DNA of 64,000 nucleotides from assembly GCA_045580815.1 (NCBI GenBank), contig JAZNOL010000095.1, positions 6,697-70,696 on the forward strand, in the 5' to 3' direction. The position numbers were made by a program, and so were the translations under genes. This document shows, piece by piece, positions 13,592 through 40,651 of this stretch. The stretch comes from Clostridia bacterium (GTDB lineage: Bacteria > Bacillota > Clostridia > RUG12999). Position 1 is the first letter of the stretch. Each line of letters begins with the position of its first letter. The notes beneath the pieces were generated by a model. The model was not told the origin of the DNA, made no database searches, and saw nothing but the letters and a program-made list of their open reading frames with translations.

Positions 13592-16500
13592 TTATTCTGT
13601 ATATGCAACTGCACTGCTCATCGGAGGAATAACAACTTTTTCGCCGTTGATAAATCCGTAAAGTGTTACAGTTTCACTTGGGTTGTAGATATAATCTTTG
13701 CCAACCTCAACATTTTTTGATGCCATGTAGTAGTCGTAAATATCAATAGTGGTTGCTCTCCACACATCGGGACGGTTAAATTTTGCACAAAAGGCATCAA
13801 AGTTTTTAACTACTTTTGCTGTGGGACCTGCATCAGGATTAGTTTCATCAGGTGCAACTTCTGCCGCATGTGTCCATACAGAGAACATAAGCAGTTCTTC
13901 GTTGTCTTCGGTATTCAGGAAAGTATTTACAACATCGTTGTGATAATCATACCAGAGTGCACTTTCGAGTGTGTATGTACATCTCCATTCCATCCAGTCT
14001 TCAGGCATTGAGAACGAGCTTGAAAAACCTACATGTCGTGCAGATACATAACCAAGCTCTCTGAGATAATCTTTAAGAGCTTCATATTCTTCTTCGCCAC
14101 GTGCTACAGGTGCCTGATAAGGCCACATAAAGTTTCTGGGTGTTACGCCGTATGCTTCAATCATTTTTTCGTGCTGTGATAAAATTGATTTTTTACAGTC
14201 TTCCAGAGTATATACCTCTGCATTACTCATTGCAATGTGTGAAGAATGGTTTGCAAGCTCGTGACCGTGTTCAAGTGCTGTGTTGTAAAACTCAGGCACG
14301 TTGTTGTATGCAAGGTTGAAGGTTCCTTTGATATCGTTTTTATCCATAATTTCCATTACACGTTTGTCAGGTTCAACAATACCGTCATCATAGTTGATGC
14401 TCATTGACTTATTTGTGAATGTGGGGTATGTAATGCGATATTCGTTAATTTCGCCTTTTTCATAAACTTTAGCCTGTGTAAGCGGTTTTACTCCTGCAAA
14501 AGAACCGTCCCAGCAGAGGAGTTTAAGTTTTTTGTAATCTGCCGGTGTTTCAATATCAAGCGTCATTGTGTCAACATTTGTGTTTGAATAAGGCAACTCA
14601 ACTTCTGATGCGCTGATGAGTTTGTCATTTTCTCCATAGAATGCCGCAATATATTTTGCGTTTTCGGTATAATAAGCACTGCCGAGGGTAATTTCAAGAC
14701 CGCCGCCGCTTGTATTAACCGAATATTCGCGGATAACATCCACATCAATACTTACAGAGTTACCTACTTCTGTTGCTGTTACTTTAACAGCACTGTCTGT
14801 TTCTTTTGAGGGAACAAGCTCGTTTCCTGATGCTGTAACGTATCCGTCCGCAGAATATGTCCAAACTGCCGCATCTGTATCGTAACTGTCAATTCTCGGA
14901 ACGAGATGCAGTTTTGAACCAATTCTCACATCAAGATTATCTACCTCGGTATAAACTTTGATTTCCGAAGCACTACCGCCATTTGAGGAAAGTTTGATGT
15001 ATCTGTAAAGGTTGTTTGTTTTTGTGTTTACTATTTCGCCGTCTTCGGTGATTTTTTCAAGATAATACCATGTTGCATTATCATCAGACACATACATATC
15101 AACTGTGCCATTTACGCCCGAAGCAACTACTTTTCTGATAATTCCGCTACGCTGCATATCAATAACAACATCACCTGCAAAAGTGTATAATGCATCGGTT
15201 TTGCCGTCATTAAGCACACCTGCGTTTGTATCTTCTGCATAAACAGGTTTGTTTGCTGTTGCGTTTTCATACATCATATTAACCGCTTCTTCTTTTTCGT
15301 CAATATATGTATCAACGCTGCCGGCAACCATGTTGTCATAATATGCCATATATCCGCTGTTGCTTGCAATTGCTATTCTGCCGTTTGTTTTAATGGGTGA
15401 GGGGTCATCATAGCTGCCTGCAAAAAGCACTTCTCCGCTATCCTTTTTAGTTACCGAATAAGTGATAACATTGCCTGATTTTCTCATTTCGAGAGTCACC
15501 CAGGTTAAGTTTATGGCAGGAATTTCAGATACTGAATCTATATAACTGTCTTCCTCTGTTTCCGCAACCTTATTAAAGCTTATTGTAATCGGATTATACG
15601 GATTTCCGGTGATTCTCAGGTCATAAAACACTGTTTCGCCGTCCTGAACAGACATTCTGATACCGGCAGATTTCACGCCCCAATGCGTCAATTTCATATC
15701 TGTTTTAAACATGAAATCTTTTTTCTCATCGGGTTTGAGTTTGAGGTTTGCAGTTCCCCAGCTGTTATTTGTGCCCATTTCCGCAAGCACGGTGTTGCCG
15801 TCGTCAAGAGTTATTGACTGCATGCTTACACCATCGTTCCAGCCTTTCCACTGGCTTGATGTTGACCAGTCGCCAACTTTTTTGCCCGGGCCGGTAAGTG
15901 CCGCTTCCATATTTTCATAGTCTTCAAAATCTTCTGTATAAAGAAGTGTAACAGGTTTGTTTGCTTCAACTTTTACTGAAAGTGATGCATCGCCGAATGA
16001 TGCGGTTGCTGTTGTAGTACCAAAACCGACTGCCTTTATGTATGCACCATCTGCCATAGCAACTTTGTCGTCACTTACTGACCATACACCGCCGTCAAAT
16101 TTATCTTCTCCGCCAAGACGGGGGTACAATTTAAGCACTGTTTCTTCATCAAGCTGATATGTTTTGGTAAGGTCTGCTTCATTAAGAATTTTAACGCCGT
16201 CAACAGTAAAATCATCGCCGCCGTGATTTACAATTATAACTGTTTTAGCCTGCTGAACTGCAGTTGTGTTAAGAATATTTCCCTCTGCTGACAGTTCGCC
16301 GAGCTTTGTCCATGTTGAAATACTGTTTTCAATTGATTCTGCAAGATAAACGCTTACCGCACTTGGTGTTTCAAGACCGTCAAGCATCACACGGCGTATT
16401 TTCTGTGCGTCTTCAAATGTGTATGTAACGTATTTGTACTCTGTGTTTGTTTCTACTGTTGCATCAGATGCAATATCCTGATACATTATTGTTGCCGGGT

Positions 16501-17935
16501 CTTCTTTTGCACCTACAAACGGGTCAACACTGCCTGCAACCATGTTGTCGTAATAGTTGGGCTGTCCGCTGTTGCTTGCAACAGAAATTCTTCCTGTTGT
16601 TTCAAGAGGTGACGGGTCGTTATAACTGCCTTCAAAAATCACTGTGCCGTCAGCTTTTTTTGCAACCGAATAATAGATAGTGTTTCCGGATTTTCTCAGT
16701 TCAACAGTTACCCATCCATCATTTATTGCCGCAATATTACTTTCTGAATATGTATATTCTGTTGCACTGTCTCCCGTAACCTTTAAAAAGCTCATTGTCA
16801 TGGGGTTATAGGGATTTGTGCCCATTCTGAGTGCGTAATACTTTTTCTGTGTGCTGTCAACGCAAATACGGATATCGTTATTTCTGTTTGACCAATGAGT
16901 GTACGCCAAGTCTGTTTTAAACATGAAATCCATATCGGGGTCAGCTTCAATGTTAAGTACTGATGCACCCCAGCTGCCATCTGTACCTCTTGCGGCAAGA
17001 ACGGTGTTGCCGTCATCAAGAGTAAGCGATTGCAACATTACGCCATCGTTCCAGCCTTTCCATGTGTTTGACGTTGTCCAGTCGCCGACTGTCTGGTTCG
17101 GACCTGTAAGTGCCGCTTCCATGTTTTCATAGTCTTCAAAATCTTCTCTATAAAGATTGTCCTCCGGCTCAACAATAACAGGTGCAACAGCACTGACTTC
17201 CATATTGTCATAATAGTTATAAATTCCGCTGTTGCTTGCAACAGAAATTTTCCCTGTTGTTGCAAGAGGTGCCAGGTCCACATAGTTTCCGCTGAACACT
17301 ACCACGCCGTCAGCTTTTTTCGTTACTGAATAACTGATTAAATTGCCGGTTTTTTTCAGTTCAAGAGTTACCCATGCATTATTTATTGCCGCAACATCGC
17401 TTTTTGAATATGTATATTCTGTTGCGGTGTCTCCCGTAACCTTGTGAAAACTCATTGTCATGGGGTTGTAGGGATTTGTGCCCATTCTGAGCGCGTAATA
17501 TGATGTTTCTTTTTCATTTACACATATGCGGATGTCATTATTCCGGCTATTCCAACCTGAATGTTTCATATCTGTTTTGAAAACAAAATCATCATTTGCA
17601 CCAATATTTTCAAGTTTCAGATTTGATGCACCCCAGCTGTTGTCTGTACCCATTGCCGCAAGAACGGTGTTGCCGTCGTCAAGAGTAATTGACTGCAATT
17701 TAAGACCGTCCTGCCAGCCTTTCCATACGGTTGATGTTGTCCAGTCGCCGACTGTCTGGCTCGGACCTGTAACCGGGTCTGTCATGTTTTCATAGTCTTC
17801 AAAATCTTCGGTATAAATAATACCTGTTGCATCAGTTTCGGTATCTGCGGCAAAAACCGAACCCGTTGCCATTGTTGCCGCAAGCATAAGCACAAAAAGC
17901 ACCAATGCCACAGCACGTTTAAATGTTTTTTTCAT
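13592..17935 (-). CDS. Secreted 1447-aa protein: three LamG-like DDFEDYENM modules, two discoidin-like plus Big_2-like segments and a C-terminal CE4 polysaccharide deacetylase domain
   Basis: Signal peptide MKKTFKRAVALVLFVLMLAATMATGSVFA. Three modules are about 80 % identical to one another (EDFEDYENM...VGDW...YYALRMGTNPYNPMTMSF.KVTGD). The CE4 motifs are present: SINYDDG (the TFDDG-like motif), HGHELANHS and MWPYQAP. Confidence 0.85.
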   Translation of the reverse strand: MKKTFKRAVALVLFVLMLAATMATGSVFAADTETDATGIIYTEDFEDYENMTDPVTGPSQTVGDWTTSTVWKGWQDGLKLQSITLDDGNTVLAAMGTDNSWGASNLKLENIGANDDFVFKTDMKHSGWNSRNNDIRICVNEKETSYYALRMGTNPYNPMTMSFHKVTGDTATEYTYSKSDVAAINNAWVTLELKKTGNLISYSVTKKADGVVVFSGNYVDLAPLATTGKISVASNSGIYNYYDNMEVSAVAPVIVEPEDNLYREDFEDYENMEAALTGPNQTVGDWTTSNTWKGWNDGVMLQSLTLDDGNTVLAARGTDGSWGASVLNIEADPDMDFMFKTDLAYTHWSNRNNDIRICVDSTQKKYYALRMGTNPYNPMTMSFLKVTGDSATEYTYSESNIAAINDGWVTVELRKSGNTIYYSVAKKADGTVIFEGSYNDPSPLETTGRISVASNSGQPNYYDNMVAGSVDPFVGAKEDPATIMYQDIASDATVETNTEYKYVTYTFEDAQKIRRVMLDGLETPSAVSVYLAESIENSISTWTKLGELSAEGNILNTTAVQQAKTVIIVNHGGDDFTVDGVKILNEADLTKTYQLDEETVLKLYPRLGGEDKFDGGVWSVSDDKVAMADGAYIKAVGFGTTTATASFGDASLSVKVEANKPVTLLYTEDFEDYENMEAALTGPGKKVGDWSTSSQWKGWNDGVSMQSITLDDGNTVLAEMGTNNSWGTANLKLKPDEKKDFMFKTDMKLTHWGVKSAGIRMSVQDGETVFYDLRITGNPYNPITISFNKVAETEEDSYIDSVSEIPAINLTWVTLEMRKSGNVITYSVTKKDSGEVLFAGSYDDPSPIKTNGRIAIASNSGYMAYYDNMVAGSVDTYIDEKEEAVNMMYENATANKPVYAEDTNAGVLNDGKTDALYTFAGDVVIDMQRSGIIRKVVASGVNGTVDMYVSDDNATWYYLEKITEDGEIVNTKTNNLYRYIKLSSNGGSASEIKVYTEVDNLDVRIGSKLHLVPRIDSYDTDAAVWTYSADGYVTASGNELVPSKETDSAVKVTATEVGNSVSIDVDVIREYSVNTSGGGLEITLGSAYYTENAKYIAAFYGENDKLISASEVELPYSNTNVDTMTLDIETPADYKKLKLLCWDGSFAGVKPLTQAKVYEKGEINEYRITYPTFTNKSMSINYDDGIVEPDKRVMEIMDKNDIKGTFNLAYNNVPEFYNTALEHGHELANHSSHIAMSNAEVYTLEDCKKSILSQHEKMIEAYGVTPRNFMWPYQAPVARGEEEYEALKDYLRELGYVSARHVGFSSSFSMPEDWMEWRCTYTLESALWYDYHNDVVNTFLNTEDNEELLMFSVWTHAAEVAPDETNPDAGPTAKVVKNFDAFCAKFNRPDVWRATTIDIYDYYMASKNVEVGKDYIYNPSETVTLYGFINGEKVVIPPMSSAVAYTE
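13945..14545 (-). other. CE4 (polysaccharide deacetylase) catalytic domain region of the 1447-aa protein
   Basis: The Asp motif YDDG, the His motif HGHELANHS and the RxPY-like WPYQAP occur in the expected order. Confidence 0.65.
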
Positions 17936-17979
17936 GGATTTCTCCTCCTTTAAATAATTTTTCGGTATATGCTATTTTA

Positions 17980-18008
17980 ATTATAATTCAACTTTAACAC
18001 AAAATCAA
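17980..18008 (-). promoter_or_regulatory. Candidate sigma-A promoter for the minus-strand operon (-10 TATAAT, 17-nt spacer, -35 TTGATT)
   Basis: Minus-strand read: TTGATT-ttgtgttaaagttgaat-TATAAT. Plus-strand coordinates are -10 at 17980..17985 and -35 at 18003..18008, about 45 nt upstream of the start codon at 17935. Confidence 0.5.
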
Positions 18009-18346
18009 TATGATAAATTATACTCATTTTTCAAAAATTTCCCCGAAAATCACTCTTAATTAGACCAAACTTGCAGACTGAGATAAAAAAAACATAATTA
18101 AGATTCTTTTTCTTCCATTATGAAAGCATTAAAATTGCTAAAAAAATTAAAAAACATGAAAAACACAAAGTGCCGTAAACCCTGATTATATACAGGGTTA
18201 CAGCACTTTCCTTAAATTACTAATTTCGGTGAGGCTCTGGGTAAATTACAGGAAGCCAAATGCAAAAAGAATCGCTTCTATATAAATAGATAATACCAGT
18301 CATAATCATCGGCAAATAAGCTTGTTAAACAACTACAGACACCAGC

Positions 18347-18417
18347 AAAATCCCCCCGTATAACGGCGGTTAGTCTTAGGACGAAGCCATCGAACGGGGG
18401 GATTTTTCTGAAATTTT
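18347..18417 (+). terminator. Terminator-like hairpin with an 8-bp G/C stem, large loop and U-run, inside the divergent regulatory region; related to the hairpin at 52842
   Basis: AAAATCCCCCCG-tataacggcggttagtcttaggacgaagccatcgaa-CGGGGGGATTTTT. Confidence 0.4.
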
Positions 18418-18516
18418 GTTAAAATGTCATGTGAATCTGTTCTCCATATTTTTCATTTACTTATAAAAACTCTCCTTTTAAGAGAATTCCAAAAATTTCA
18501 TTCTCTTAATTATATG

Positions 18517-18545
18517 TTGAAATCAAAAAATGTGTATGATATAAT
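18517..18545 (+). promoter_or_regulatory. Strong sigma-A promoter (-35 TTGAAA, 17-nt spacer, extended -10 TGaTATAAT) upstream of the XRE-fusion regulator and the plus-strand operon
   Basis: TTGAAA(18517..18522)-tcaaaaaatgtgtaTGa-TATAAT(18540..18545); the coding start is at 18662. Confidence 0.6.
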
Positions 18546-18661
18546 ACAGATATAAGGGTATTCCTTTCCTTATTATATCTACACGCTAAAAATGCAATTA
18601 ACAGCATTCTTCAAAAAAGAGAGTTTTAATAACAATTAACTACATAACGGAGAGAGTAACA

Positions 18662-19768
18662 ATGACAGACTACATAAACAATTTTTCAAACAATTTATAT
18701 ACTCACCGAAAAAGAATGGGACTGACCCAGCGTGAGCTTGGAGATATGCTTAACTTTTCCGAAAAAACTGTAAGCAAATGGGAAATTGGTGCATCTATTC
18801 CCGGAGCGGATGTTCTTTTGAAAATGTCCGAGATTTTTAACACATCAATAGACGCACTGCTCAAAAGCTCATTCAAACGGCTTTACCTCGGCATAGACGG
18901 CGGCGGCACAAAAACCGCTCTGGAACTTATGGACGAGTGCGGCAAGGTTGTTAGTTTTTTGGAAACCGATGGCTGTAATCCTTTTGATGTGGGTATGGAC
19001 GTATCTAAAAACATTTTAAGAAACGCAATACATAAAATCTGTGCAAAGGTAACCATGTCCGATGTTGTGACTTTTGCCGGAATTGCCGGTGGAATTTCCG
19101 GTAACAACAAGGCAATTTACGAAGACTTTTTTAAAGAGTTTAATTTTGCCGCTGCATACAACGGCAGTGATAACGAAAACGTTGTTTTTGCCGGACTTGG
19201 AACAGAGGATGGTATTGCCGTCATTATGGGAACGGGTGTTTGTGTTTACCGTGTGAAAAATGGTATTATGGACAGACTCTCTGGTTGGGGACATCTTATC
19301 GACGATGGCGGAAGCGCCTATAACATAGGCAGAGATGCACTTGCCGCAGTTTATGCTCAAAGTGACGGTACCGGTAAAAAGACACAGATTACAGATATAA
19401 TTCTTAATTCAAATGAAAATTTAAATACTATCCTCACCGATGTATATGCTCTTGGCAAAAAGAAGGTAGCATCTTATGCTCCCATGGTATTTGAAGCTGC
19501 AAAGCAGGGCGACGAAATTGCCTCAAAAATAATAACACGAAACATGAAAGTTGCAGCACACATTATTGAAACTGCTGCAAAACCTTTTGAGACCTCTCCT
19601 GTTCGCACAGTTATTGCCGGTGGACTTATAAAACAGCCGGAGCTTATAAATTATATTAAACAGGAGCTTAAAAATCCTGAAAAATTTGATATGTCCTATT
19701 TGAACGTTCCTCCCGTAAAAGGTGCAGTAATGCTTGCAAAATATAAGTGGAACAACGAAAATATATAA
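18662..19768 (+). CDS. Transcriptional regulator: N-terminal XRE-family HTH fused to a BadF/BadG/BcrA/BcrD-type ATPase domain (N-acetylglucosamine-kinase-like)
   Basis: HTH_3 motif: MGLTQRELGDMLNFSEKTVSKWEIGASIPGADVLLKMSEIF. The sugar-kinase phosphate-1 motif is LGIDGGGTKTAL, followed by an actin-fold ATPase region. Confidence 0.8.
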   Translation: MTDYINNFSNNLYTHRKRMGLTQRELGDMLNFSEKTVSKWEIGASIPGADVLLKMSEIFNTSIDALLKSSFKRLYLGIDGGGTKTALELMDECGKVVSFLETDGCNPFDVGMDVSKNILRNAIHKICAKVTMSDVVTFAGIAGGISGNNKAIYEDFFKEFNFAAAYNGSDNENVVFAGLGTEDGIAVIMGTGVCVYRVKNGIMDRLSGWGHLIDDGGSAYNIGRDALAAVYAQSDGTGKKTQITDIILNSNENLNTILTDVYALGKKKVASYAPMVFEAAKQGDEIASKIITRNMKVAAHIIETAAKPFETSPVRTVIAGGLIKQPELINYIKQELKNPEKFDMSYLNVPPVKGAVMLAKYKWNNENI

Positions 19769-19825
19769 AATCATTAAATTATTATTATGTCACATATAAC
19801 TATTATTTTCAAGGAGGCAGGCTAA

Positions 19826-22800
19826 ATGAAAAAAATTCTGACGTTCATTCTTCTGGCAGCTATTGCTTGCAGTCTGATGTCTGTTCCGGTATGTGCCGAC
19901 GGATTAGAAGAAAAAGTTTACGAACTTACTATACTTGACGAAGAACGCCAAACCATAAACGGGTGGGGTATTCATCTTACCGAAGGCGCTGATAAAACAA
20001 AATATTTTATGCAGGCTTCGTATGCTGCATCTACAAAAGAACTTGGTGCAACAATTAACAGGGCGTTCTGGGATCCCAATGAGGTTATGAATGAAGACGG
20101 CACTTTAAACGAAAAAGAAGCTGACAGATACTATTATAACCATATTTATCCGGCAATAGCCTGCGGAATTCCCGACTATGCAATGACTGTCGAAAGACCC
20201 GCGATACCTTTTGCTAATTTTGCACCAAACGGACGTGCGACCTATCCTGACGAAGAATCGGAAGATAAAATGGTTAAATTTGTTACCGATTATTTTCTTT
20301 ATATGAAAAGCAAAGGCTATGTTTTACCTGTAGCTTTTAATATAATGAACGAGCCGGCAAACTTCAAACGTTATGTCGTGGGTGAACAGTATGTGAGATT
20401 TATCAAAAAATATAAAAAATCATTTATCGAAAACGGGCTTGAAGAAATCAGACTTGTTGGTCCTGATGCCGCCGGGCTTGAATGGGTAGATGCGAACGTT
20501 GGCGAATCTCTTGCATATTTTGATGCAGACCCTGAGTATGCAGAAGCTCTTGACATCGTATCGTACCACGCTTACGGCAGCACTTTGCAGGAGGAAACTT
20601 CGCAGAAATTTGCAAAGGGTCTTGAAAAATATCCCGACAAAGAAGTCTGGCAGACTGAAATTTCTCAGCTTGTTTTGGGTGATGGCCTTAACAAGAAGTA
20701 TGAGAATTTCCGTTATTTTGCGGCAAACAATATGATTACTGCTCTTATTGCCGACATTGCATGGCTTCGTGTGAATACTTGGTTTTATTTTGATACGATA
20801 GACCGTTCTCACCGATTCCTTGAAGACGGTACAGCGTATTCAAACAACGCCATCCGACTTCTCACCTTCCTCGGTACAGGCTGGGGCACAAACACCTCAA
20901 CTTCGTTCTTGAAAACACCGCTTTACAACGCACTTCAACTGATATACAACAATGTTCCCGTAGGCTCTGTTGTTCACAGAGTTTATACAGACGACCCGGA
21001 GCATTATAACCGCGTTGCCAGCAAAGGCACTCTCGTTGCTTTTGACTGCGATGACCACACTGTACTTTTGGTTGTAAATACTACTAAAAACGAAAAAACC
21101 TACAATATCAACAACTTAAAAGGAAAAAGTGCAGAAATCAATACAATCTCACAGGATAATTCCGATACTGTTGTAAAAACAGGCAGAAATATTGTTGACG
21201 GAAGCATCAAAAACTTTGTTCTTAAACCCGACAGCATAAATATCATAGTTACAAAAAACGAAGACTTTGGCACTCCGGAAGTTACCATTGACAGCGACAA
21301 AGATATTTTTATTGTTGATGGCATCCGCAACTCCCGTAACGACAGCATTACTTTAGCAGGCAGTGTTGACGAACATGCAAAAGTTACAATAAATGGAAAA
21401 AGCGTTAAACTGGACAAAAACAACAAATTTGCTTATCCGGTAACGTTAAGCAATGGAGAAATATTTACAATTTCTGCTATAGACAAAGAAGGCAACAAAA
21501 GCAGTAAGGTTGTGGAATACAACTACAACCCTTCTTATACAGGGCTTAAACTTGAACAGCATCAGGCAAATATCACATCAAGCGAATATGTGATAAAAGG
21601 TATTGCCAACTGTAAATCCACCATTAGATGCGGCGAATTTTCAGTACAGACAAAGGACGATAACAGTTTTGAACTTAAAATTAAAGTCCCCGAAGGACAA
21701 AATGATTTTGAAGTTGTTGCCGTTGACGAAAACAACAACAAATCCGATGCATTGAAAGTATCAATCAACTGTGACTCTGTCGTTCCTGATATCAATCTTG
21801 AAACAAACGGCGGAACAACAAACTTAAGACGGTATGTTCTCAAAGGTAATGTAAGCGAAAAACTTTCTTCGCTTAAAGTAAACGGCGTTGATATTTCTGT
21901 TGATGAAAACCTTACTTTTTCTGATGCCGTGAAAGTTTCGGAGGGTACTAACACTCTCAAACTTACAGCAACTGACCTTATGGGAAATATTTCTGAAAAA
22001 GAAGTTTCGGTAGAATATACAAAAGATTCTTTCACACCTCACAAGGTTAACGGTACAGCATACACAAGATATGCCACATCGGGCGTAAAACTTGACGGTA
22101 AGCTTGAAGAAACCGATTGGAAACTTGACCTTATTGCCGACAAAGTGGTTGAAGGTAGCATGGATAATATTAATATTTTCGGCACTTTGTGGGATGAAGA
22201 AAATCTTTACATTGCCGCTAAAGTAAAAGACACCGATATACGTTTTGAAGACGTAAACCCATATCAAAACGACTGTGTCGAAATATTCCTTAACCCGTCA
22301 AACAATAAAGACGGTGCATTTGAGCCTCTTGACAGACAGTTGTGGTCAGCATATGTGGACAATGATAAATCTGTTCTTTACAAAAATAAATATCCGTTTA
22401 ACAGTGCGTGGAATTTCACAAAAGACGGATATACCGTTGAAATTGCTATTCCATGGAGTTCAATGGAACTTACTGCCTCGGACGGGCTTAAACTCGGTTT
22501 TGATTTAGCAGTAAACGACAATGACATCGGCGGAAACAAACGCCGCGGTGTTGCTACCTGGTGCGGAAGCAACCTCAACTACAACGACACAAGCATGTAC
22601 GGCACCCTTGTTTTAACAAAATCTTCGGATATAACTTATGAAGATACCGAAAGCGACTACACAGCCGCTCCAAAAGAACCGGTGGAAGCAGAGCATGTTG
22701 CGATTGATCTTAGCATTAACGGTACTAAAGTTGAAGGTGGCACAATTGCACTTTTAATCGGTGATAAACCGTATGTTACCTACAACGTGTTCAACAAACT

Positions 22801-23041
22801 GGGAATCGTTACAAGTTGGGGCGAATTTGACACCATTGATTATACTTATAACGGCAAAAAATATACGTTCTGGCCTGACCGTGATGCTGTTTACGTTAAC
22901 GACAAAGCTGTGGATGTTAAAGGCGACAAACCTTACAGATCGGACGATGAGCTTTATATTCCGGTTAAGTTTATGAACGAATATCTCGGAATCACAGCAG
23001 TTTACGATTCCACAACAAAAACAGTCAACATTACTGAATAA
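19826..23041 (+). CDS. Secreted 1071-aa glycoside hydrolase (clan GH-A, GH30/GH5-like) with Ig-like repeats, a CBM9-like module and a C-terminal copper-amine-oxidase-N-like domain
   Basis: Signal peptide MKKILTFILLAAIACSLMSVPVCADG. Catalytic motifs FNIMNEPANF (acid/base) and VWQTEIS (nucleophile). CBM9-like region DGKLEETDWK...IFGTLWDEENLYIAAKVKD...CVEIFLNP. C-terminal region LLIGDKPYVTYNV...DELYIPVKFMNEYLG. An RBS AAGGAGG lies 8 nt upstream. Confidence 0.82.
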   Translation: MKKILTFILLAAIACSLMSVPVCADGLEEKVYELTILDEERQTINGWGIHLTEGADKTKYFMQASYAASTKELGATINRAFWDPNEVMNEDGTLNEKEADRYYYNHIYPAIACGIPDYAMTVERPAIPFANFAPNGRATYPDEESEDKMVKFVTDYFLYMKSKGYVLPVAFNIMNEPANFKRYVVGEQYVRFIKKYKKSFIENGLEEIRLVGPDAAGLEWVDANVGESLAYFDADPEYAEALDIVSYHAYGSTLQEETSQKFAKGLEKYPDKEVWQTEISQLVLGDGLNKKYENFRYFAANNMITALIADIAWLRVNTWFYFDTIDRSHRFLEDGTAYSNNAIRLLTFLGTGWGTNTSTSFLKTPLYNALQLIYNNVPVGSVVHRVYTDDPEHYNRVASKGTLVAFDCDDHTVLLVVNTTKNEKTYNINNLKGKSAEINTISQDNSDTVVKTGRNIVDGSIKNFVLKPDSINIIVTKNEDFGTPEVTIDSDKDIFIVDGIRNSRNDSITLAGSVDEHAKVTINGKSVKLDKNNKFAYPVTLSNGEIFTISAIDKEGNKSSKVVEYNYNPSYTGLKLEQHQANITSSEYVIKGIANCKSTIRCGEFSVQTKDDNSFELKIKVPEGQNDFEVVAVDENNNKSDALKVSINCDSVVPDINLETNGGTTNLRRYVLKGNVSEKLSSLKVNGVDISVDENLTFSDAVKVSEGTNTLKLTATDLMGNISEKEVSVEYTKDSFTPHKVNGTAYTRYATSGVKLDGKLEETDWKLDLIADKVVEGSMDNINIFGTLWDEENLYIAAKVKDTDIRFEDVNPYQNDCVEIFLNPSNNKDGAFEPLDRQLWSAYVDNDKSVLYKNKYPFNSAWNFTKDGYTVEIAIPWSSMELTASDGLKLGFDLAVNDNDIGGNKRRGVATWCGSNLNYNDTSMYGTLVLTKSSDITYEDTESDYTAAPKEPVEAEHVAIDLSINGTKVEGGTIALLIGDKPYVTYNVFNKLGIVTSWGEFDTIDYTYNGKKYTFWPDRDAVYVNDKAVDVKGDKPYRSDDELYIPVKFMNEYLGITAVYDSTTKTVNITE
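22058..22616 (+). other. CBM9-like carbohydrate-binding module region
   Basis: DG.LDE.DW ... LYIAAKV.D ... D.VEIF.NP, the pattern typical of family 9 CBMs. Confidence 0.55.
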
Positions 23042-23058
23042 CAAGGAGGTTTATTCTT

Positions 23059-25932
23059 GTGAAAAACGTTTTAAAACGCTTATTTTCTCTGTTCACCATT
23101 GTTTGTGTTATTGCATCATGTGTCGCAATAACAGCCGCTGCCGAAGAGGTTTATGTAAACCCTATGAGCGGCACAGGCAATGTTACAACCACAAGTGCCA
23201 TTCTTACCAACGGCAGTTGGGATGACAAATGGTATGCCCGCGGTCTTTCAAACGGTGAGCTTACCACTGCCGACGGCAGATATCTTGTTGTAAAGGCAGC
23301 ACATACCGAAAGCGGAATACGCATTACAACAAACTATGCTATCTGCGGTCTCTGGCGATATGTGCCGGCGAGCACCTTTGAAGCAGGCAACACTTACAGA
23401 TTAAGAGCAACCTTCAGAATAAATTCTGACGGTAAAACAGGTTTTATATCCAATAATAAAGCAAATTTCAAACTGCGTCTTATGTATGACGGTACAAACC
23501 CTGTTTTTGAAAGTCAACGTCTCATAATTGACAAATGCGATGAGTTTGTTACACATACTCAGGAATTTGTAATGACCGAAGAAATGCTTGACGGTCACAC
23601 AAAAATGTATATGGACATAGATTGTCCGTCTTCCGGCTCTCTGTTTTCTGATGCAAACTTCCCTACCGGCAGAATTACAATGGATTTTCTTGAGTTTGTT
23701 ATTGAAAAAGCCGATATCTATACTGTTATCGGCAAAACAGAGCCTAATTCGACACTGACAGTTGAACTTAAACACAAATATGAAGAGCAGGTTTATTACA
23801 CAAAAGACGTAACAGCCGATGAAAACGGAAGATTTGAAACAGACATTGCTTTTTATCACAATATTGATGATTTTTATGTATGTGTAAAAGACGGAGAAAA
23901 CACATCTGTAAAAAGCATGAACACTTTCTTTGAAACAGATGGCAAAAAAATTGTTGAAACAGATTTTTTTGCAGATGTTCCCACAAATGGTGTGTATGTT
24001 AATGGGTTTACCGTAAACGGAGTTGCTTCACCTTTTAACAAAATCACTTTGCCTGAAACTGCAAAAACAGTTTCGGTTACAGCAAAAAGCATTGATTATG
24101 AAGGTGACTCCACATTAATCGGTGTTCTTTATGAAAACGGTAGTGCAAAAGAAATTGCCTGCGATGTTCAGTCGCTTATCCCCGGTGCAGACGGTAATTA
24201 TTCCATTTGTCTCGGTGAAGGCGGAGACGAAATCAGGTTCTTTCTTTTGGATTCAATTTCATCCATGAAGCTTTTAAGCCGCGAATATGTAATTGACACC
24301 AAAGGCACAACCGAAAAAAGATATAAAGCAAACGCATCCGTTACAACTGTTACATCCGATTTTAATCCCGTAACAGCAACGGCTGATATCACAAGAGACG
24401 GTGGGGACGGTACGGCAACTGTTGTTATAACAAAAAAAGATGTTGTTTTATCTGACATAACCGCCGATACAATAAACATCAATGTTGCCGCTGTTGTAAA
24501 CAGTGAATCTAATGTTACAAGTGTAAAAAAATCCACCGAAAAACCTGATGGTGAAACCTACAAATTCCCGGACGGTACATATACCGCATATGTTTCTGGC
24601 GTTAAAAACACACAAGACTATTCTTACACTACACCCGACACACTTTTAAATGCTTATTCAACTCTTAATGGTTCAAATGTTGATTTTGACAGTTTCGATG
24701 CATGTATATCCGATGCAAAATTAAAGCTTGACCTTTCGGAATACAACTCCCTTGGAAGCAACAAAAAATATGCAAAAGATGTGTTTATGAAAGTTAAAAC
24801 AGAAGACATATCGTCCGTAGGGCAAATACAGACGTTGCTTGATACATCGGTAAGCACCGTGCTTCTGTCAAGTGCTCCTACTGTATCCCTGATTGAAAAA
24901 TACGGAACCCTGTTAGGTTTTGATTCTGTTTTGCTTGAAGAATTCAAAACTGCTGACGAGGATGTTAAAACCGATACTGCATCTCTTATGAAAAGCAATG
25001 CTCATTCACTTGACAGCCTGACTGTAGAGCTTGTTAAAAACCGCTTTACAGACGGTTATGTTACGGCTATGATAAACAATGCCGAAACCTATGGCATGAT
25101 AAAACAGTTTATCTCTGATAATTATAAAAATTATATCAGTGTAAACCTCAACAAGCTTGAAGACAACGACGTAAACAGCGGTGATGTTTTTAAAGATATG
25201 TTGGATATGATTCCTTTTGACAGCATAAAAGATATTGAAGACAGCTATTCAGATGCTGTGGATGACAATACCAGCTCCTCCGGTGGCGGATTTGGCGGCG
25301 GAGGCGTCGGTGGCGGAGGCTTTGGTGCCTCCGGCAATATCAAAACCGAAACTATGAGCGCAATTGTTCCGGCAGAAGCTGTTATTTTTGAAAAAACCGC
25401 AACCTTTAAAGACGTAAACAAAGATTTTTGGGCATATGATTACATTGAAAATCTTGTAAATCTTGGAGTAATTTCAAAATCCGATAATTTCAGACCAAAC
25501 GACGATATAACCCGCGAAGAATTTGTTAAAATGGTTGTTGTGGCATTTTACGGCAGCCCCTCCGGTGGACTTGCAACATATACTGATGCCACCGCCGGCG
25601 CATGGTATTATCCTTATCTTGCAAAAGCTCAGGAACAACAGATAATCAGCGGAATGCCCGACGGCAGTTTTGGTGTTGGCGAAAAAATCACACGCCAGGA
25701 TATGGCTGTTATTATTGACAGAATAATTGGTAAAGACGATACTCCAAACACATTTGAATTTAGTGACGATGATGCAATTTCGTCTTATGCACGTGAAGCT
25801 GTATACAATATTTACAGCACAGGTGTTATCGGCGGATTTGAAGACAGCACTTTCAGACCGCAAAAAAATGCCACACGTGCTGAGTGTGCAAAAATAATTT
25901 CTCAGGCATCAACACTTAAAAATACACATTAA
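23059..25932 (+). CDS. Surface protein, 957 aa, GTG start; helical KYSDY-like module, poly-Gly linker and a C-terminal SLH triplet
   Basis: RBS AAGGAGG 9 nt upstream of GTG at 23059. Signal peptide MKNVLKRLFSLFTIVCVIASCVAITAAA. Linker SSSGGGFGGGGVGGGGFGASG. SLH motifs include FWAYDYIENLVNLGVISK..., ITREEFVKMVV, WYYPYLAKAQEQQIISGMPDGSF and ATRAECAKII. Confidence 0.85.
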   Translation: MKNVLKRLFSLFTIVCVIASCVAITAAAEEVYVNPMSGTGNVTTTSAILTNGSWDDKWYARGLSNGELTTADGRYLVVKAAHTESGIRITTNYAICGLWRYVPASTFEAGNTYRLRATFRINSDGKTGFISNNKANFKLRLMYDGTNPVFESQRLIIDKCDEFVTHTQEFVMTEEMLDGHTKMYMDIDCPSSGSLFSDANFPTGRITMDFLEFVIEKADIYTVIGKTEPNSTLTVELKHKYEEQVYYTKDVTADENGRFETDIAFYHNIDDFYVCVKDGENTSVKSMNTFFETDGKKIVETDFFADVPTNGVYVNGFTVNGVASPFNKITLPETAKTVSVTAKSIDYEGDSTLIGVLYENGSAKEIACDVQSLIPGADGNYSICLGEGGDEIRFFLLDSISSMKLLSREYVIDTKGTTEKRYKANASVTTVTSDFNPVTATADITRDGGDGTATVVITKKDVVLSDITADTININVAAVVNSESNVTSVKKSTEKPDGETYKFPDGTYTAYVSGVKNTQDYSYTTPDTLLNAYSTLNGSNVDFDSFDACISDAKLKLDLSEYNSLGSNKKYAKDVFMKVKTEDISSVGQIQTLLDTSVSTVLLSSAPTVSLIEKYGTLLGFDSVLLEEFKTADEDVKTDTASLMKSNAHSLDSLTVELVKNRFTDGYVTAMINNAETYGMIKQFISDNYKNYISVNLNKLEDNDVNSGDVFKDMLDMIPFDSIKDIEDSYSDAVDDNTSSSGGGFGGGGVGGGGFGASGNIKTETMSAIVPAEAVIFEKTATFKDVNKDFWAYDYIENLVNLGVISKSDNFRPNDDITREEFVKMVVVAFYGSPSGGLATYTDATAGAWYYPYLAKAQEQQIISGMPDGSFGVGEKITRQDMAVIIDRIIGKDDTPNTFEFSDDDAISSYAREAVYNIYSTGVIGGFEDSTFRPQKNATRAECAKIISQASTLKNTH
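25384..25929 (+). other. SLH domain triplet, C-terminal
   Basis: SLH consensus repeats after the Gly-rich linker. Confidence 0.7.
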
Positions 25933-25946
25933 AGATAGGTGAAATC

Positions 25947-28700
25947 ATGAAGAAAATAACATATGCAATTTTAATTTGCATGATTTTACAGCTTTTTTCG
26001 TTTGTCACTCTGGCAGATGACAATGCAGTAAAACCTGATTATTCTAAACAGATTTCAGTTATGTCTGCTTTGGAAATATTAGACACATCTTTGCAAAAGC
26101 AAAATCCTGATACCGAAATGACACGGGCAGAGTTTATAAGTGCAGTTATTCATCTTATTGGACTCAAACCTGATGATTTTTCAGCTACTCCCCGAGGATT
26201 TAACGACGTCACAGATAACACAGAGTTTTTTGTAGAAATAAATATGGCATATATGCTTGGTATCGTAAGAGGAAATGGCAGCGGATTGTTCTTCCCCACC
26301 GATAAAATCAGCATGAACGATGCAATTTCTGTTTTAATTAATGCCTTAGGATATGATGTGTTTGATGACGGAAAATCTACCGCCTTGTCTCATGCAATCG
26401 ACCTTAATCTTTTGAAAAACATAAGCTTCAACGGTGAAGGCGGTGTTACTGTCGGTCAGGGTGCAACACTTTTATACAATGCACTTGAAGTTGATGTTGC
26501 AACCTCTTATATGGCTGACGGCAAAGTTCGAATCAGTGTTTGCGAAGGCAGAAATGTTTTAAACGAATATTTAGGTATGGAATACGGCAGCGGTGTAATA
26601 ACCCAAAACGCCATAACTTCTCTTGATTCGTTTATGAAGAAACCAGCCTCAAAAACAAGTGTTGTTATAGACAATATTATTTTTGAAGTCGGAGAAACAG
26701 ATGCAGACAAGCTGCTTGGATACAATGTGCAGTATTATTACCGCCATGACATAGCTACCGGCGAGAATATTCTTGTTTATATACGACCTCACGGTAACAG
26801 GGTTGTGCAGGTTAATTCCGAAGAATTCCGCAGTTTTTCAGGAAACAAATTCAAATATTTTGAAATGTACAAATCATTTGGAACACAGTATAAGGAAGCG
26901 TCACTTACAATTTCATCCAAGGTGGATGTAACATATAACGGTGTCGCTTTCCCCACATATACAAATGACGACATACTGCTTAAAAACACATCCGGATACA
27001 ACGTGTTTATTGACAACAACAATGACTCAGTTATAGACGTTATTCACGTTAACCGGTGCGAAAACTATGTTGTTGATGTGGCTGTGCGTGATGATGAAAT
27101 CATTTATACTTCTGCTCCAAAGGACAAACTGGATTTTAGCATTTATGATACTGTTGAATTTTACCTTTCAAACGGCAAACAGGTTTCGATTGATGCGGTT
27201 TTGGCATCTGATGTTATGACAGTTATGGCATCAAAGAACAAATCCTATGCAAAAGTCATTTTAAGCTCCCATTCGCTTGATTTAACTGTTGTTGGCATAG
27301 ATGAAGAAGCAAACACAATAGCTTTTGACAACGGTCAGGAATATTATATGGACAAATCTTTTGTTCCATTTAAAGAGCTGGCAACAATCGGTCGCAGAGC
27401 ATCGTTTATGTTCGACTATCGTGGTAGACTTGCCGCACTTAACACCGACAATGTCGGTATGGAGCTGAAATATGCATATTTGTGCAAAGCCGCAATCAGC
27501 GGCAACATTGACAAAGAGGTTCAGCTTAAACTTTTAAACACAGTAAACGAAATAAACGTTTATACCCTACCACAGAAGCTTTCTTTCGACTCGCAGTCAA
27601 AAACTGCCGAAGAAGCATTTAATCTTTTGACTGATGTTGATGAAACCGGTGAGCGGTACACAAAAATGCAGATGATACGTTACCGTCTTAATTCAGACAA
27701 AACAAAAGTGGTTTATATTGATACATCAACAGAAACTGCTGAAGAAAACGGTATTTCATTAAAAATTGACACTTACAGTAACGTGGAGTTCGGTATTTCC
27801 TGGTCTATAACTCACAAAGCGGCGTTTGCAACGCCCGGTATTGTGCTTTGTATTCCTCAGGTTCCTGATGAGCTTGATGGAGTAAAGCTCCCCCGTTCTC
27901 TTGCAAACGATTTTTCCGACTCGGCATTCAGAGCAGGAGAAGAGGTGTGGAAATATCTGCCCAACCGCACAAGCAAAAAAGCAGATGTTATTGATCCTGA
28001 CGATGCCGGAATTGCAAACATTGTTGTTTGTTATTACGATTATCTTGAATCACCGCCCGAAGGTGGAATAAACGAAGCTGTGTCCCAAACACTGCGTTGC
28101 ATGGTTGACGAGGTAAGCGCCTGCCTTGCAGAAGACGGAATGCCTACTTTAAAACTGCAATATTTTGCAAACGGCGAAAAAAGCACAATTATTGCACGTA
28201 CACCTCAGGCTTTCAAAAAACCTGTTTATGATGCTGACGGCAATATTGTTCCCGGGCAGTTCAAAAACCTTGAAAAAGGCGATGTAATTTATCTTTATAG
28301 CGACTTCAAAGGCAGAGCAGAATCAGCTAAAGTGCTTTTTGATATATCACGTACCGACAACGGCAGATTTAATGCACCAAAACGTATATCAGACACTATA
28401 ACCGAATGCGGAATAGTATATTCTGCATCAGACCGAGGATTCAAACTGCTGGGTACACTTAAAAAAGATGCTCTTCCCTTTACCGGAAAAATTGAAGATA
28501 CCTTTGACATTTCACAGGCAAGAGTGCGAAAATACAGCGAATCAAAAGTATCTATCACGATTTATGACAGCGAAAACAACATTGTAAGAGCCGGCTCGAT
28601 TGCTGACATAAAAGGATATAAGGATTATCCCGATGACCCGTCTTTTGTTGTAAGTTTTGTTACCAACTACGAAACCGCCACTGTATTTATAATAGATTAG
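25947..28700 (+). CDS. SLH-domain surface protein, 917 aa (N-terminal SLH, uncharacterised body); paralog of the next gene
   Basis: Signal peptide plus SLH-like repeats (TEMTRAEFISAVIHLIGL, FFVEINMAYMLGIVRGNGSGLFFPTDKISMNDAISVLINALGY). It shares conserved blocks with 28714..31410, for example ASFMFDYRGRLAALNTDN against ASFLFDWRGNICGTYDD. Confidence 0.8.
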   Translation: MKKITYAILICMILQLFSFVTLADDNAVKPDYSKQISVMSALEILDTSLQKQNPDTEMTRAEFISAVIHLIGLKPDDFSATPRGFNDVTDNTEFFVEINMAYMLGIVRGNGSGLFFPTDKISMNDAISVLINALGYDVFDDGKSTALSHAIDLNLLKNISFNGEGGVTVGQGATLLYNALEVDVATSYMADGKVRISVCEGRNVLNEYLGMEYGSGVITQNAITSLDSFMKKPASKTSVVIDNIIFEVGETDADKLLGYNVQYYYRHDIATGENILVYIRPHGNRVVQVNSEEFRSFSGNKFKYFEMYKSFGTQYKEASLTISSKVDVTYNGVAFPTYTNDDILLKNTSGYNVFIDNNNDSVIDVIHVNRCENYVVDVAVRDDEIIYTSAPKDKLDFSIYDTVEFYLSNGKQVSIDAVLASDVMTVMASKNKSYAKVILSSHSLDLTVVGIDEEANTIAFDNGQEYYMDKSFVPFKELATIGRRASFMFDYRGRLAALNTDNVGMELKYAYLCKAAISGNIDKEVQLKLLNTVNEINVYTLPQKLSFDSQSKTAEEAFNLLTDVDETGERYTKMQMIRYRLNSDKTKVVYIDTSTETAEENGISLKIDTYSNVEFGISWSITHKAAFATPGIVLCIPQVPDELDGVKLPRSLANDFSDSAFRAGEEVWKYLPNRTSKKADVIDPDDAGIANIVVCYYDYLESPPEGGINEAVSQTLRCMVDEVSACLAEDGMPTLKLQYFANGEKSTIIARTPQAFKKPVYDADGNIVPGQFKNLEKGDVIYLYSDFKGRAESAKVLFDISRTDNGRFNAPKRISDTITECGIVYSASDRGFKLLGTLKKDALPFTGKIEDTFDISQARVRKYSESKVSITIYDSENNIVRAGSIADIKGYKDYPDDPSFVVSFVTNYETATVFIID

Positions 28701-28713
28701 GAGGAGAATTAAT

Positions 28714-31410: not shown

Positions 31411-31430
31411 GACTGATTTAACAAAAAATC

Positions 31431-31466
31431 TTTGACATTCCGCATAATGTCATATTATGATTTACC
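31431..31466 (+). promoter_or_regulatory. Candidate internal promoter (-35 TTGACA) overlapping a 6-bp inverted repeat CATAAT-gtcat-ATTATG
   Basis: TTGACAttccgcataatgtcatATTATGAT lies within the only sizeable gap (145 bp) of the plus-strand operon. Confidence 0.3.
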
Positions 31467-31555
31467 GCAATTTGTTATACAGCCTGATTTTAAAAGGGGG
31501 AATTTAAAAAATACTGATTTGGGTCTGAACTTAAAAACAAAAAATTTAAAAGGAG

Positions 31556-33241: not shown

Positions 33242-33247
33242 TGCAGG

Positions 33248-33280
33248 TTTATCCGGGGATTTTCTAAATCCCCGGATAAA
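33248..33280 (+). promoter_or_regulatory. Intra-operon stem-loop (12-bp stem) without a clear U-run
   Basis: TTTATCCGGGGA-ttttctaaa-TCCCCGGATAAA. Confidence 0.4.
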
Positions 33281-33313
33281 TTAAACTTAACAAGAAAGAC
33301 GGAGATACGCTCT

Positions 33314-36379: not shown

Positions 36380-36393
36380 AAGGAGGCACATTC

Positions 36394-38673: not shown

Positions 38674-38822
38674 AATATGGTTTTTTATGCAAACACTTTG
38701 ACCGGCTACCACACATACACACCGACAAAGCCTAACATTAAAATTGCAAAAAGAACAAATTTTATATGAATACATCATAACCATCTGCAAATGAACGCAT
38801 TAAATAACAGTTAATACTAAAA

Positions 38823-38866
38823 AGACACCATTTTCCCCAGGAGAAGAAACGGTGTCTTTTGTTTAT
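38823..38866 (+). terminator. Probable rho-independent terminator of the plus-strand operon
   Basis: AGACACC...GGTGTCT stem followed by TTTTGTTTAT. Confidence 0.5.
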
Positions 38867-38923: not shown

Positions 38924-38952
38924 TTGACAAATCACTTTCGTTATTGTAAAAT
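38924..38952 (+). promoter_or_regulatory. Candidate sigma-A promoter of the VanY-like gene (-35 TTGACA, 17 nt, -10 TAAAAT)
   Basis: TTGACA(38924..38929)-aatcactttcgttattg-TAAAAT(38947..38952). Confidence 0.35.
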
Positions 38953-40254: not shown

Positions 40255-40617
40255 TCATTTTATCGGCTGATAAAGACCTGCTGTTTCTTTGTTTCTGTAC
40301 TCATGCTTTTCGTAATATCCGATTAAAACTCCGTCATCATCCCGAAGAGCTACCATATACACATCCTTATTTTCCTCGTCGTTACGGTATGTATATATAA
40401 TATTATTTTTATTGCTTTCTTTAAACCAAGAAATTACTTTTTCAATTTTCTCATTTGCTTGTGGCGGATGACAATTTTTTATGCTGCTACCCGTCAAATC
40501 TTTATGATAATGTTTTATCGATGACGGATTCATATACACAATAATATCATCCATATTACATACCACAACAGGAGCAATATCTTGCTCAAGTATGCTTTTG
40601 AATAATTTATTTATCAT
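40255..40617 (-). CDS. Small PAS-like cytoplasmic protein (about 120 aa)
   Basis: The internal Met (MINKLFKSILEQ...) is taken as the start because the 171-aa ORF-track model overlaps the downstream flavoprotein gene by about 119 nt. The PAS-like call is tentative. Confidence 0.45.
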   Translation of the reverse strand: MINKLFKSILEQDIAPVVVCNMDDIIVYMNPSSIKHYHKDLTGSSIKNCHPPQANEKIEKVISWFKESNKNNIIYTYRNDEENKDVYMVALRDDDGVLIGYYEKHEYRNKETAGLYQPIK

Positions 40618-40651
40618 GTTATCCCTCCCTTTGTAGGCAACGTTATTGCCG

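Follow-up and report, generated by a model that had tools for sequence, protein, structure and literature searches.

Can a sugar kinase that carries its own DNA-binding head serve both as an enzyme and as the regulator of the genes beside it? The question is raised by a gene in a 64,000-nucleotide (nt) stretch of DNA from Clostridia bacterium (GTDB lineage Bacteria; Bacillota; Clostridia; RUG12999; GenBank assembly GCA_045580815.1, contig JAZNOL010000095.1). We call this whole stretch the window and count all positions from its first letter. The gene, HTH-murK, encodes an XRE-type helix-turn-helix (HTH) head joined to a BadF/NAGK-type sugar kinase that resembles MurK, the kinase of N-acetylmuramic acid (MurNAc), and it stands just upstream of a 19-kb operon on the same strand (Table 1). 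We know of no account of how the catabolism of this peptidoglycan sugar is regulated in Clostridia. We consider it rather likely that HTH-MurK is a bifunctional MurNAc kinase and autoregulator that senses MurNAc and controls the downstream operon by co-transcription.

A sugar kinase with an XRE head

The gene is a single uninterrupted open reading frame (ORF) with an ATG start, preceded at 7 to 12 nt by a GGAGAG ribosome-binding site. A Pfam scan placed HTH_3 on amino acids (aa) 15 to 65 (45.2 bits against a cut-off of 23) and BcrAD_BadFG (PF01869) on aa 76 to 359 (99.8 bits against 31.5), the latter over profile positions 1 to 271 of 271. An AlphaFold2 (AF2) model built with 34 homologues had a predicted local distance difference test score (pLDDT) of 92.9 and a predicted template modelling score (pTM) of 0.79. 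In this model, a five-helix head at residues 4 to 67 is connected by a short linker of about six residues to an ASKHA fold that begins at residue 74. Foldseek matched the model to Sulfolobus tokodaii hexokinase (2e2n), Clostridium acetobutylicum MurK (8zo3), and human NAGK (2ch5) in the PDB, with E values of 1e-16 to 3e-19 and target-normalised template modelling (TM) scores of 0.69 to 0.86. By sequence, the closest solved relative is C. acetobutylicum MurK (8zo3; E 5e-20), followed by the S. tokodaii hexokinase and human NAGK, and the N terminus resembles the XRE repressors ImmR and P22 C2.

The kinase motifs of HTH-MurK are LGIDGGGTKT (residues 76 to 85), S169-D170, GTG (190 to 192), GWG (208 to 210), GGS (216 to 218), and AGGL (319 to 322). 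In an alignment of 34 homologues, the phosphate-1, catalytic Asp, phosphate-2 GTG, GWG, GGS..N, and adenosine AGGL motifs are invariant, and D170 aligns with the catalytic Asp, D103, of C. acetobutylicum MurK. In the head, R16, Q23, K35, S38, W40, and E41 are likewise invariant, and the recognition helix is almost so. The ratio of nonsynonymous to synonymous substitution (dN/dS) between the window gene and its nearest relative is 0.079 for the whole gene, 0.028 for the HTH, and 0.095 for the kinase domain, values that are rough as synonymous sites are saturated. By this measure the HTH is the most constrained part of the protein. A gene pair in which both members keep murQ gave 0.081, indistinguishable from the window pair. 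The residue before the catalytic Asp is the small Ser169. The equivalent T94 of Tannerella forsythia MurK is among the positions that give room for the lactyl ether (PMC10465942), and Ser169 may be a weak hint at MurNAc as the substrate.

A first-pass annotation, made from the sequence alone, had called the gene an XRE-HTH fused to a BadF-type, GlcNAc-kinase-like ATPase domain. The two Pfam matches, the Foldseek matches, and the intact ORF, whose architecture recurs in more than 100 clusters, bear this out. The same evidence led us to reject a frameshift or two-ORF artefact. The annotation had also likened the protein to ROK repressors, in which a sugar-kinase fold acts as the ligand sensor. 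The likeness holds for the fusion of a kinase fold to a DNA-binding head, but not for the sensor domain, which is not degenerate here. We rejected a ROK identity: the head is XRE rather than winged helix, the zinc motif CxCGxxGC is not found in the protein (its cysteines are C93, C105, C127, and C194), and the ROK model (PF00480) scores 31.8 bits on aa 260 to 338 against 99.8 for BcrAD_BadFG. The ROK repressors Mlc and Lmo0178 superpose through the kinase core only, at a root mean square deviation of about 12 Å (Foldseek). We also rejected a phage repressor or a toxin-antitoxin antitoxin, as the HTH similarity is merely generic and there is no phage or toxin-antitoxin context. Pfam detected neither HTH_6 nor SIS, the domains of MurR/RpiR, in HTH-MurK, and the BzdR-type model PRK08154 matched its HTH alone and weakly (E 0.14).

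A family of fused and unfused kinases

A search of 5.8 billion proteins returned 1,922 matches. The best 120 all carry both domains, with 361 to 410 aa and 44 to 80% identity; named homologues, from Clostridia metagenome-assembled genomes (MAGs), are labelled just "XRE family transcriptional regulator" or "hypothetical." An exhaustive HMMER run against 1.84 billion representatives (50% identity) gave 323 matches at E ≤ 1e-30, and the best 150 include 101 fused proteins and 42 kinases without the head. Unfused kinases reach 49% identity to the kinase domain of HTH-MurK. The genomes with homologues are uncultured Eubacteriales, Oscillospiraceae, and Clostridia MAGs from gut and rumen, and a metagenome scan yielded mostly distant, unfused kinases.

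Among those best 150 representatives, 83 of 101 fused proteins and all 42 unfused ones retain intact catalytic motifs, leaving degenerate motifs in 18 of 101 versus 0 of 42 (Fisher p = 0.0017). In the degenerate cases D170 is replaced by N, S, L, or I, or the DxGxT motif is scrambled, and every one of them is fused. HTH-MurK of the window belongs to the intact class. By motif content, then, the family has three kinds of member: kinases without the head, fusions with an intact kinase, and fusions with a pseudo-kinase. Since 18 of the 101 fused representatives are catalytically dead, members of the family can act as pure regulators, and the confinement of degenerate kinases to fused proteins suggests that regulation is a function separate from catalysis. 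The family is widespread in Clostridia, and its members appear to turn their own operons on and off. Apparent pseudo-kinases among the fused representatives include P0247, P0257, P0288, P0310, P0313, P0323, P0326, P0344, P0351, and P0358.

Relatives are partnered with murQ

Contigs were retrieved for six homologues, and in all of them a SIS/GKRP_SIS_N gene directly adjoins the fused gene or overlaps it; two further homologues show the same. In tblastn searches, murQ lay within 81 nt of the fused gene, in either order, at no fewer than 18 of 23 informative fused loci. These neighbours score 324 to 342 bits with TIGR00274, the N-acetylmuramic acid 6-phosphate etherase equivalog (cut-off, 302), and kinase-only relatives in Acutalibacteraceae also adjoin murQ. 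In two-gene murQ modules the fused gene is the sole kinase and therefore must normally supply MurNAc-6-phosphate (MurNAc-6-P). HTH-MurK is probably an active kinase of MurNAc or N-acetylglucosamine (GlcNAc) as well as a regulator, because its relatives are the only kinase beside murQ. The ligand that it senses is likely to be MurNAc, alternatively GlcNAc or a 6-phosphate of either sugar. Among the ligands named in the first pass, GlcNAc stays on the list and xylose and oligosaccharides drop out.

The nearest relative, found in the fetched loci L169 to L171, is 80% identical in protein sequence; there, a single nucleotide separates the fused gene from murQ on its upstream side. By blastn, L169 and the window share two blocks and no others. 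Positions 379 to 460 of L169, the promoter 5′ of murQ, match window positions 18465 to 18546 at 87 to 89% identity, and positions 1319 to 2463 match 18641 to 19780 at 77%, so that promoter and O1 (the predicted operator described below) are better conserved than the coding sequence. The homology stops 12 bp past the stop codon, after which L169 has a convergent lipase gene and a terminator and the window has the giant operon. Given these two blocks, the window keeps a murQ-operon promoter and the kinase gene. The comparison indicates that murQ was lost in the window from between them, and that the ancestral role of promoter and regulator is control of murQ-murK.

A conserved palindrome upstream of the promoter

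Because the recognition helix is almost invariant, we compared the regions 5′ of the family operons for a shared pattern. The pattern AHTCTC-N7-GAGADT emerged, and we name its copy in the window O1. The 64 kb contain a single exact copy. Allowing up to one mismatch raises the number of matches to five, where 0.75 would be expected; O1 and the operator-like O2 are two of the five and share this one intergenic region. The exact palindrome is present in 9 of 174 fetched loci, all of them fused-family loci, each just 5′ of the murQ/HTH-murK operon; the only extra exact match is a second one in L001 (8004 to 8022), within an upstream gene. Seven of 22 distinct upstream regions contain it versus 0.00 in shuffles, and 1.51 Mb of non-fused loci, unfused murK-murQ operons included, contained none.

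The palindrome lies 27 to 29 nt 5′ of near-consensus −35/−10 elements (10 to 11.5 of 12 positions) in the window, L169, L001, L085, L087, L088, L005, L172, and L174. The composite of right arm, 27 to 29 nt, and promoter is found in 11 of the 22 regions, including those with degenerate left arms (L002 and L008), against a background of 0.0015 per 400 nt. A half-site abuts the −35 hexamer in the window, and L169, L087, L001, L085, and L005 have an equivalent CTCT half-site at the same position. We rejected O1 as an RNA hairpin or terminator, since its folding energy, −2.4 kcal/mol, does not beat that of shuffles, and the sequence is conserved, not merely the pairing. We infer that O1 is very probably the operator of HTH-MurK and that the gene is autoregulated.

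Promoters, hairpins, and probable read-through

The plus-strand promoter is the best sigma-70-type match of the region and is 87 to 89% identical to the promoter 5′ of murQ in L169 to L171. Its extended −10 element is TGATATAAT (18537..18545). Over the whole region, 11 promoter-like sites were found against 6.8 ± 2.2 in shuffles, a modest excess. The larger of two strong hairpins, whose G/C-rich 13-bp stem is bordered by runs of A and U on both strands, matched no Rfam family. The two hairpins, which lie in a 726-bp intergenic region, may insulate the divergent units or mark a lost gene. A riboswitch or small RNA in this intergenic region was rejected, as Rfam at E ≤ 1 gave a chance snoRNA match alone, and no credible small ORF was found there. 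In L001, a leader of about 275 nt (8880..9179) separates the O1-controlled promoter from murQ and contains hairpins such as GGGGGTGTCAACCCC and GACGACATGTGCGTC; it could hold an additional element of RNA-level control.

The spacer behind HTH-murK contains neither a terminator nor a plus-strand promoter-like site, and 19760..19830 folds at −1.4 kcal/mol, worse than shuffles. With no terminator after HTH-murK, the regulated promoter probably reads through into the 19-kb operon, and the regulator is probably co-transcribed with it. Gaps between the operon genes are 13 to 17 bp within 19826..31410, and a terminator-like hairpin appears only behind the last gene, at about 38820..38866.

The first-pass annotation had seen in this locus a divergent promoter hub and, in HTH-MurK, its candidate master regulator and sugar sensor. 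Its parts were located correctly: the plus promoter with TGaTATAAT is exactly as described (11/12), a minus-strand promoter-like site exists, the next plus-strand gene starts 57 bp on, and a G/C-rich terminator-like hairpin stands 5′ of the plus promoter. The hub itself is not supported. The divergent promoters are about 510 bp apart with both hairpins between them and so form no compact hub, and the minus promoter has no operator. As for the master regulator, co-transcription preserves the idea for the downstream operon, but the operator pattern is confined to the promoter of HTH-murK itself and does not recur across the locus. A scan of the 64 kb found no such pattern at the divergent promoter, nor close to the two-component and ABC transporter genes, so a role over the whole neighbourhood is unsupported.

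Table 1. Features of the HTH-murK locus, by position in the window
Feature	Position	Strand	Basis
Promoter-like site TTGATT-17-TATAAT, 10/12, for the divergent 1,447-aa gene (13592..17935)	18008..17980	−	Promoter scan
Second hairpin, followed by a U-run on the minus strand	18167..18209		−20.4 and −25.5 kcal/mol, z about −6
Terminator-like bidirectional hairpin 5′ of O1	18343..18410		−36.3 and −37.3 kcal/mol, z = −5.7 and −6.4 per strand
O1, predicted operator, 19-bp palindrome ACTCTCCTTTTAAGAGAAT (AHTCTC-N7-GAGADT), centre near −73	18469..18487		Pattern comparison
Extra half-site ATTCTCTTAAT abutting the −35 hexamer	18500..18510	+	By eye, weaker evidence
Sigma-A-type promoter TTGAAA-17-TATAAT with TG, 11/12	18517..18545	+	Promoter scan
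Window-specific leader, 94 bp	18547..18640	+	Stands where L169 has about 880 bp of leader and murQ
O2, operator-like palindrome ATTCTTCAAAAAAGAGAGT, one mismatch, 137 bp from O1, between −10 and start codon	18606..18624		
HTH-MurK gene, 368 aa, XRE HTH and BadF/NAGK-type (MurK-like) sugar kinase	18662..19768	+	ORF, Pfam, PDB match, AF2 model, Foldseek
XRE-type HTH head, aa 1 to 72, recognition helix SEKTVSKWE	18662..18877	+	HTH_3, model helices, invariant residues
ASKHA kinase domain, aa 73 to 368	18878..19765	+	Invariant alignment columns, motifs tabulated for 150 representatives
57-bp spacer to the next gene (ATG at 19826)	19769..19825	+	Fold and promoter/terminator scans
Seven genes for giant secreted/SLH/CBM9 proteins, probably co-transcribed with HTH-murK	19826..38673	+	Pfam, gaps
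Internal promoter-like site TTGACA-18-TATGAT, 11/12, in the 145-bp gap before 31556	31432..31461	+	
Last operon gene, 766 aa, candidate cytoplasmic GH42-like glycosidase	36373..38673	+	AF2, Foldseek, neighbours
Intrinsic-terminator-like hairpin and U-run, operon end	38820..38866	+	−15.9 kcal/mol, z = −2.8, then UUUUGUUU

A GH42-like protein closes the operon

The 766-aa product of the last operon gene matched nothing in Pfam or NCBIfam or, by sequence, in the PDB, and no signal peptide was seen by eye. Its AF2 model (pLDDT 88, pTM 0.92) has a three-domain GH42-like architecture, and Foldseek matched it to GH42 beta-galactosidases (E 1e-24) at 10 to 14% identity. The family is large and well conserved, with 619 matches and 50 to 62% identity among the best 120. 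Homologues adjoin murQ/HTH-murK in eight loci (L001, L006, L010, L012, L020, L085, L172, and L174), and another lies in the murQ-murR(RpiR)-X operon of L177. In L001, SLH giants resembling the window genes at 23059, 25947, and 28714 stand just 5′ of its GH42-like gene and operator. The model and these neighbours make the 766-aa protein a candidate for a cytoplasmic glycosidase that acts on di- or oligosaccharides containing MurNAc, with the conserved E184 and E391 as its possible catalytic residues. The transcription unit of the window thus begins and ends with members of a MurNAc module, which supports a functional link between regulator and operon.

Proposed mechanism and alternatives

We suggest that HTH-MurK is a one-component trigger enzyme, a MurK-type kinase for MurNAc (possibly GlcNAc) with an N-terminal XRE head. 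We base this on the fusion, the conservation of the motifs, the murQ linkage of the relatives, the operator-promoter architecture, the loss of murQ, and the lack of a terminator. T. forsythia MurK is a two-fold dimer in which MurNAc causes concentric closure of the N-domains by 12 degrees and up to 6.9 Å (PMC10465942). Like the solved MurK kinases, whose C-domains hold the dimer together, HTH-MurK would dimerise through its kinase C-domains and offer two HTH heads to O1, 29 nt 5′ of its own promoter, with weaker sites at the −35 element and at O2. Sugar would close the kinase N-domains, to which the short linker tethers the heads. Closure would then alter the head-to-head geometry and its fit to the 6-N7-6 palindrome, and hence the occupancy of O1. 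We slightly favour repression relieved by substrate over activation. In the ancestral murQ-murK unit, MurNAc would be converted to MurNAc-6-P and then to GlcNAc-6-P and D-lactate. In the window, the regulated promoter, with murQ lost, would read into a 19-kb operon of giant surface or secreted proteins that ends in the GH42-like enzyme.

Several observations weigh against this proposal. Tblastn, and blastn that included the window-specific leader (18547..18640), found no murQ and no murQ remnant anywhere in the 64-kb window; MurNAc-6-P would therefore have no local sink, and the protein might be a sensor only. No curated NCBIfam model claims HTH-MurK, which scores 112.8 bits with NagK_SO3507 (NF046058) against an equivalog cut-off of 370. 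Its identity to characterised MurK proteins is 18 to 26%, and substrate specificity is not readable from the sequence or the pocket residues. About half of the family upstream regions, those of more divergent members, lack the canonical palindrome, and O2 is not conserved in L169. The centre of O1 near −73 is a position commoner for class-I activators than for repressors. Finally, the distal three operon genes could be expressed independently from the internal promoter-like site at 31432..31461, a stretch in which no RNA structure was found (31405 to 31470).

The position of O1 leads to the rival that survives best, in which a sugar-bound dimer at O1 activates by recruiting RNA polymerase in a class-I manner. 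We give this a substantial chance, somewhat short of even. The distance from O1 to the −35 element is fixed at 27 to 29 nt in 9 to 11 loci, and phasing this strict is a usual mark of activators that contact RNA polymerase. However, the promoters are near consensus (10 to 11.5 of 12), often with an extended −10, so an activator should be unneeded. Extra half-sites flank or overlap the −35 element (the window at 18500..18510, L087, L169, and L001), the spacer (L088, L005, and L172), or the leader (O2 of the window, and L087). Near-consensus promoters combined with extra half-sites suggest repression. PutA, BirA, and NadR, enzymes with DNA-binding domains, act as repressors, which also counts against activation.

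A second rival keeps the regulator and drops the enzyme: the kinase domain would serve as an effector pocket for sugar, and perhaps ATP, in the manner of the ROK repressors NagC and Mlc or of BzdR, with no kinase flux at least in this organism. The missing murQ and the catalytically dead fraction of the fused family both favour it, and BzdR sets a precedent for an XRE head on a kinase fold that acts as a non-enzymatic regulator (PMC3602430). However, HTH-MurK retains every catalytic and ATP motif, its kinase domain has a dN/dS as low as that of murQ-linked relatives, and murQ may sit elsewhere in the genome, of which 64 kb were examined. We regard this explanation as unlikely, though it deserves to be kept in mind.

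A third rival assigns O1 to a different, unlinked regulator and lets the head of HTH-MurK bind elsewhere. L086, L007, and L089 would fit this, as they share the recognition helix while O1 is not detectable. However, O1 goes with the fused gene and not with murQ, being present beside HTH-murK in the window and in L172, both of which lack murQ, and absent from all unfused murK-murQ loci. Operator variants also co-vary with the recognition helix. In L174 an altered helix (SNKAVSSWE) goes with an altered palindrome (AATCTA..TAGATT), and the canonical site is missing from members whose helices diverge further. We think this explanation improbable. That HTH-MurK is an ordinary metabolic kinase with a vestigial head, or an artefact of annotation or frameshift that joins two genes, is barely credible: unfused kinases do come within 49% identity of its kinase domain, but the unbroken ORF keeps one architecture and length in more than 100 clusters, the HTH has a dN/dS of 0.028 with a nearly invariant recognition helix, and the cognate palindrome co-occurs with fused genes only.

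Other genes in and around the operon

Three further operon genes, at 25947..28700, 31556..33241, and 33314..36379 on the plus strand, encode proteins of 917, 561, and 1,021 aa. The 561- and 1,021-aa proteins had no curated match, the 917-aa protein had a sub-threshold GatD_N match alone, and a PDB search with the 917- and 1,021-aa proteins found nothing meaningful. Neighbours of the three proteins carry SLH, CBM9, Glucodextranase-B, and Cu_amine_oxidN1 modules. The divergent gene (13592..17935, minus strand) encodes a secreted protein of 1,447 aa with three repeats of about 230 aa, each starting YTEDFEDYENM...VGDW.TS..WKGW, and a C-terminal CE4 polysaccharide-deacetylase domain that is weakly like a peptidoglycan GlcNAc deacetylase.

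Past the operon, a VanY-type D-Ala-D-Ala carboxypeptidase gene (38971..40197, plus strand) has its own promoter-like site at 38924..38952, and an Amidase_3 N-acetylmuramoyl-L-alanine amidase gene lies at 57101..57817 on the minus strand. These two genes are compatible with a peptidoglycan-processing theme of the region. A PAS-domain ORF (40255..40770) and an FMN reductase ORF (40652..41299), both on the minus strand, overlap by about 120 nt, which may reflect a frameshift or a mis-set start. In other loci (L002, 7889..9845; L175, 2341..7978), genes for an MR_MLE protein (L-Ala-D/L-Glu epimerase-like), a short-chain dehydrogenase, and a beta-lactamase-fold protein recur beside HTH-murK-murQ or the GH42-like gene. 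This recurrence hints at a broader catabolic regulon for murein peptides and sugars.

Comparison with known systems

MurK of C. acetobutylicum (8zo3) and T. forsythia (8oqw, 8ow9) belongs to the same BadF/NAGK subfamily of ASKHA kinases as HTH-MurK, with the same motifs and catalytic Asp. It also has the murQ partnership seen in the relatives of HTH-MurK, whereas the window copy has no adjacent murQ. Unlike HTH-MurK, the characterised MurK proteins have no DNA-binding domain. The ROK repressors NagC, Mlc, XylR, and Lmo0178 follow a similar logic, but they use the ROK kinase subfamily with a Zn-binding Cys motif and a winged HTH in place of an XRE head, and they are catalytically inactive whereas the motifs of HTH-MurK are intact.

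BzdR of Azoarcus has an XRE head, a short linker, and a kinase-derived, shikimate-kinase-like domain; it regulates a catabolic operon and is the textbook case of an enzyme that recruited a DNA-binding domain (PMC3602430). Its effector domain is a P-loop shikimate-kinase fold that has lost activity, whereas HTH-MurK is an ASKHA protein with all catalytic residues. The three kinds of member in our family parallel the route proposed for BzdR. MurR (RpiR type; HTH_6 plus SIS) is the known regulator of murQ operons; its SIS sensor binds MurNAc-6-P, and it is unrelated to HTH-MurK. In HTH-MurK systems, the kinase itself appears to take over MurR's role. In the trigger enzymes PutA, BirA, and NadR, one polypeptide both catalyses and regulates, as we propose for HTH-MurK, but their folds and pathways are unrelated. 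A search of the full-text literature, whose coverage excludes most subscription journals, found no XRE-BadF/MurK fusion, no such operator, and no BadF-type sugar kinase acting as a trigger enzyme.

Implications

As a tentative and still doubtful extension, the family may be a living series from enzyme to transcription factor, in which the open and closed states of the catalytic cycle gate DNA binding, so that transcription would report the flux of MurNAc and not its mere presence. In the window, this module would have been rewired by the loss of murQ and by the placing under it of a 19-kb operon that encodes giant surface proteins and a GH42-like glycosidase. Sensing of a cell-wall sugar would thereby be tied to a programme by which a gut Clostridium forages for the cell-wall glycan of bacteria.

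If the proposal is right, a kinase with its own DNA-binding head would take the place of MurR and supply a MurNAc biosensor whose operator is already defined. The operator and promoter predictions are specific enough for direct testing. With its unfused, fused-active, and fused-dead stages coexisting, the family would also be a natural test of the model in which an enzyme recruits a DNA-binding domain and then loses catalysis, a model so far backed mainly by engineered BzdR chimeras. Finally, the link to a giant-surface-protein operon and to a GH42-like family that travels with murQ points to the scavenging of cell-wall glycan in gut and rumen Clostridia.

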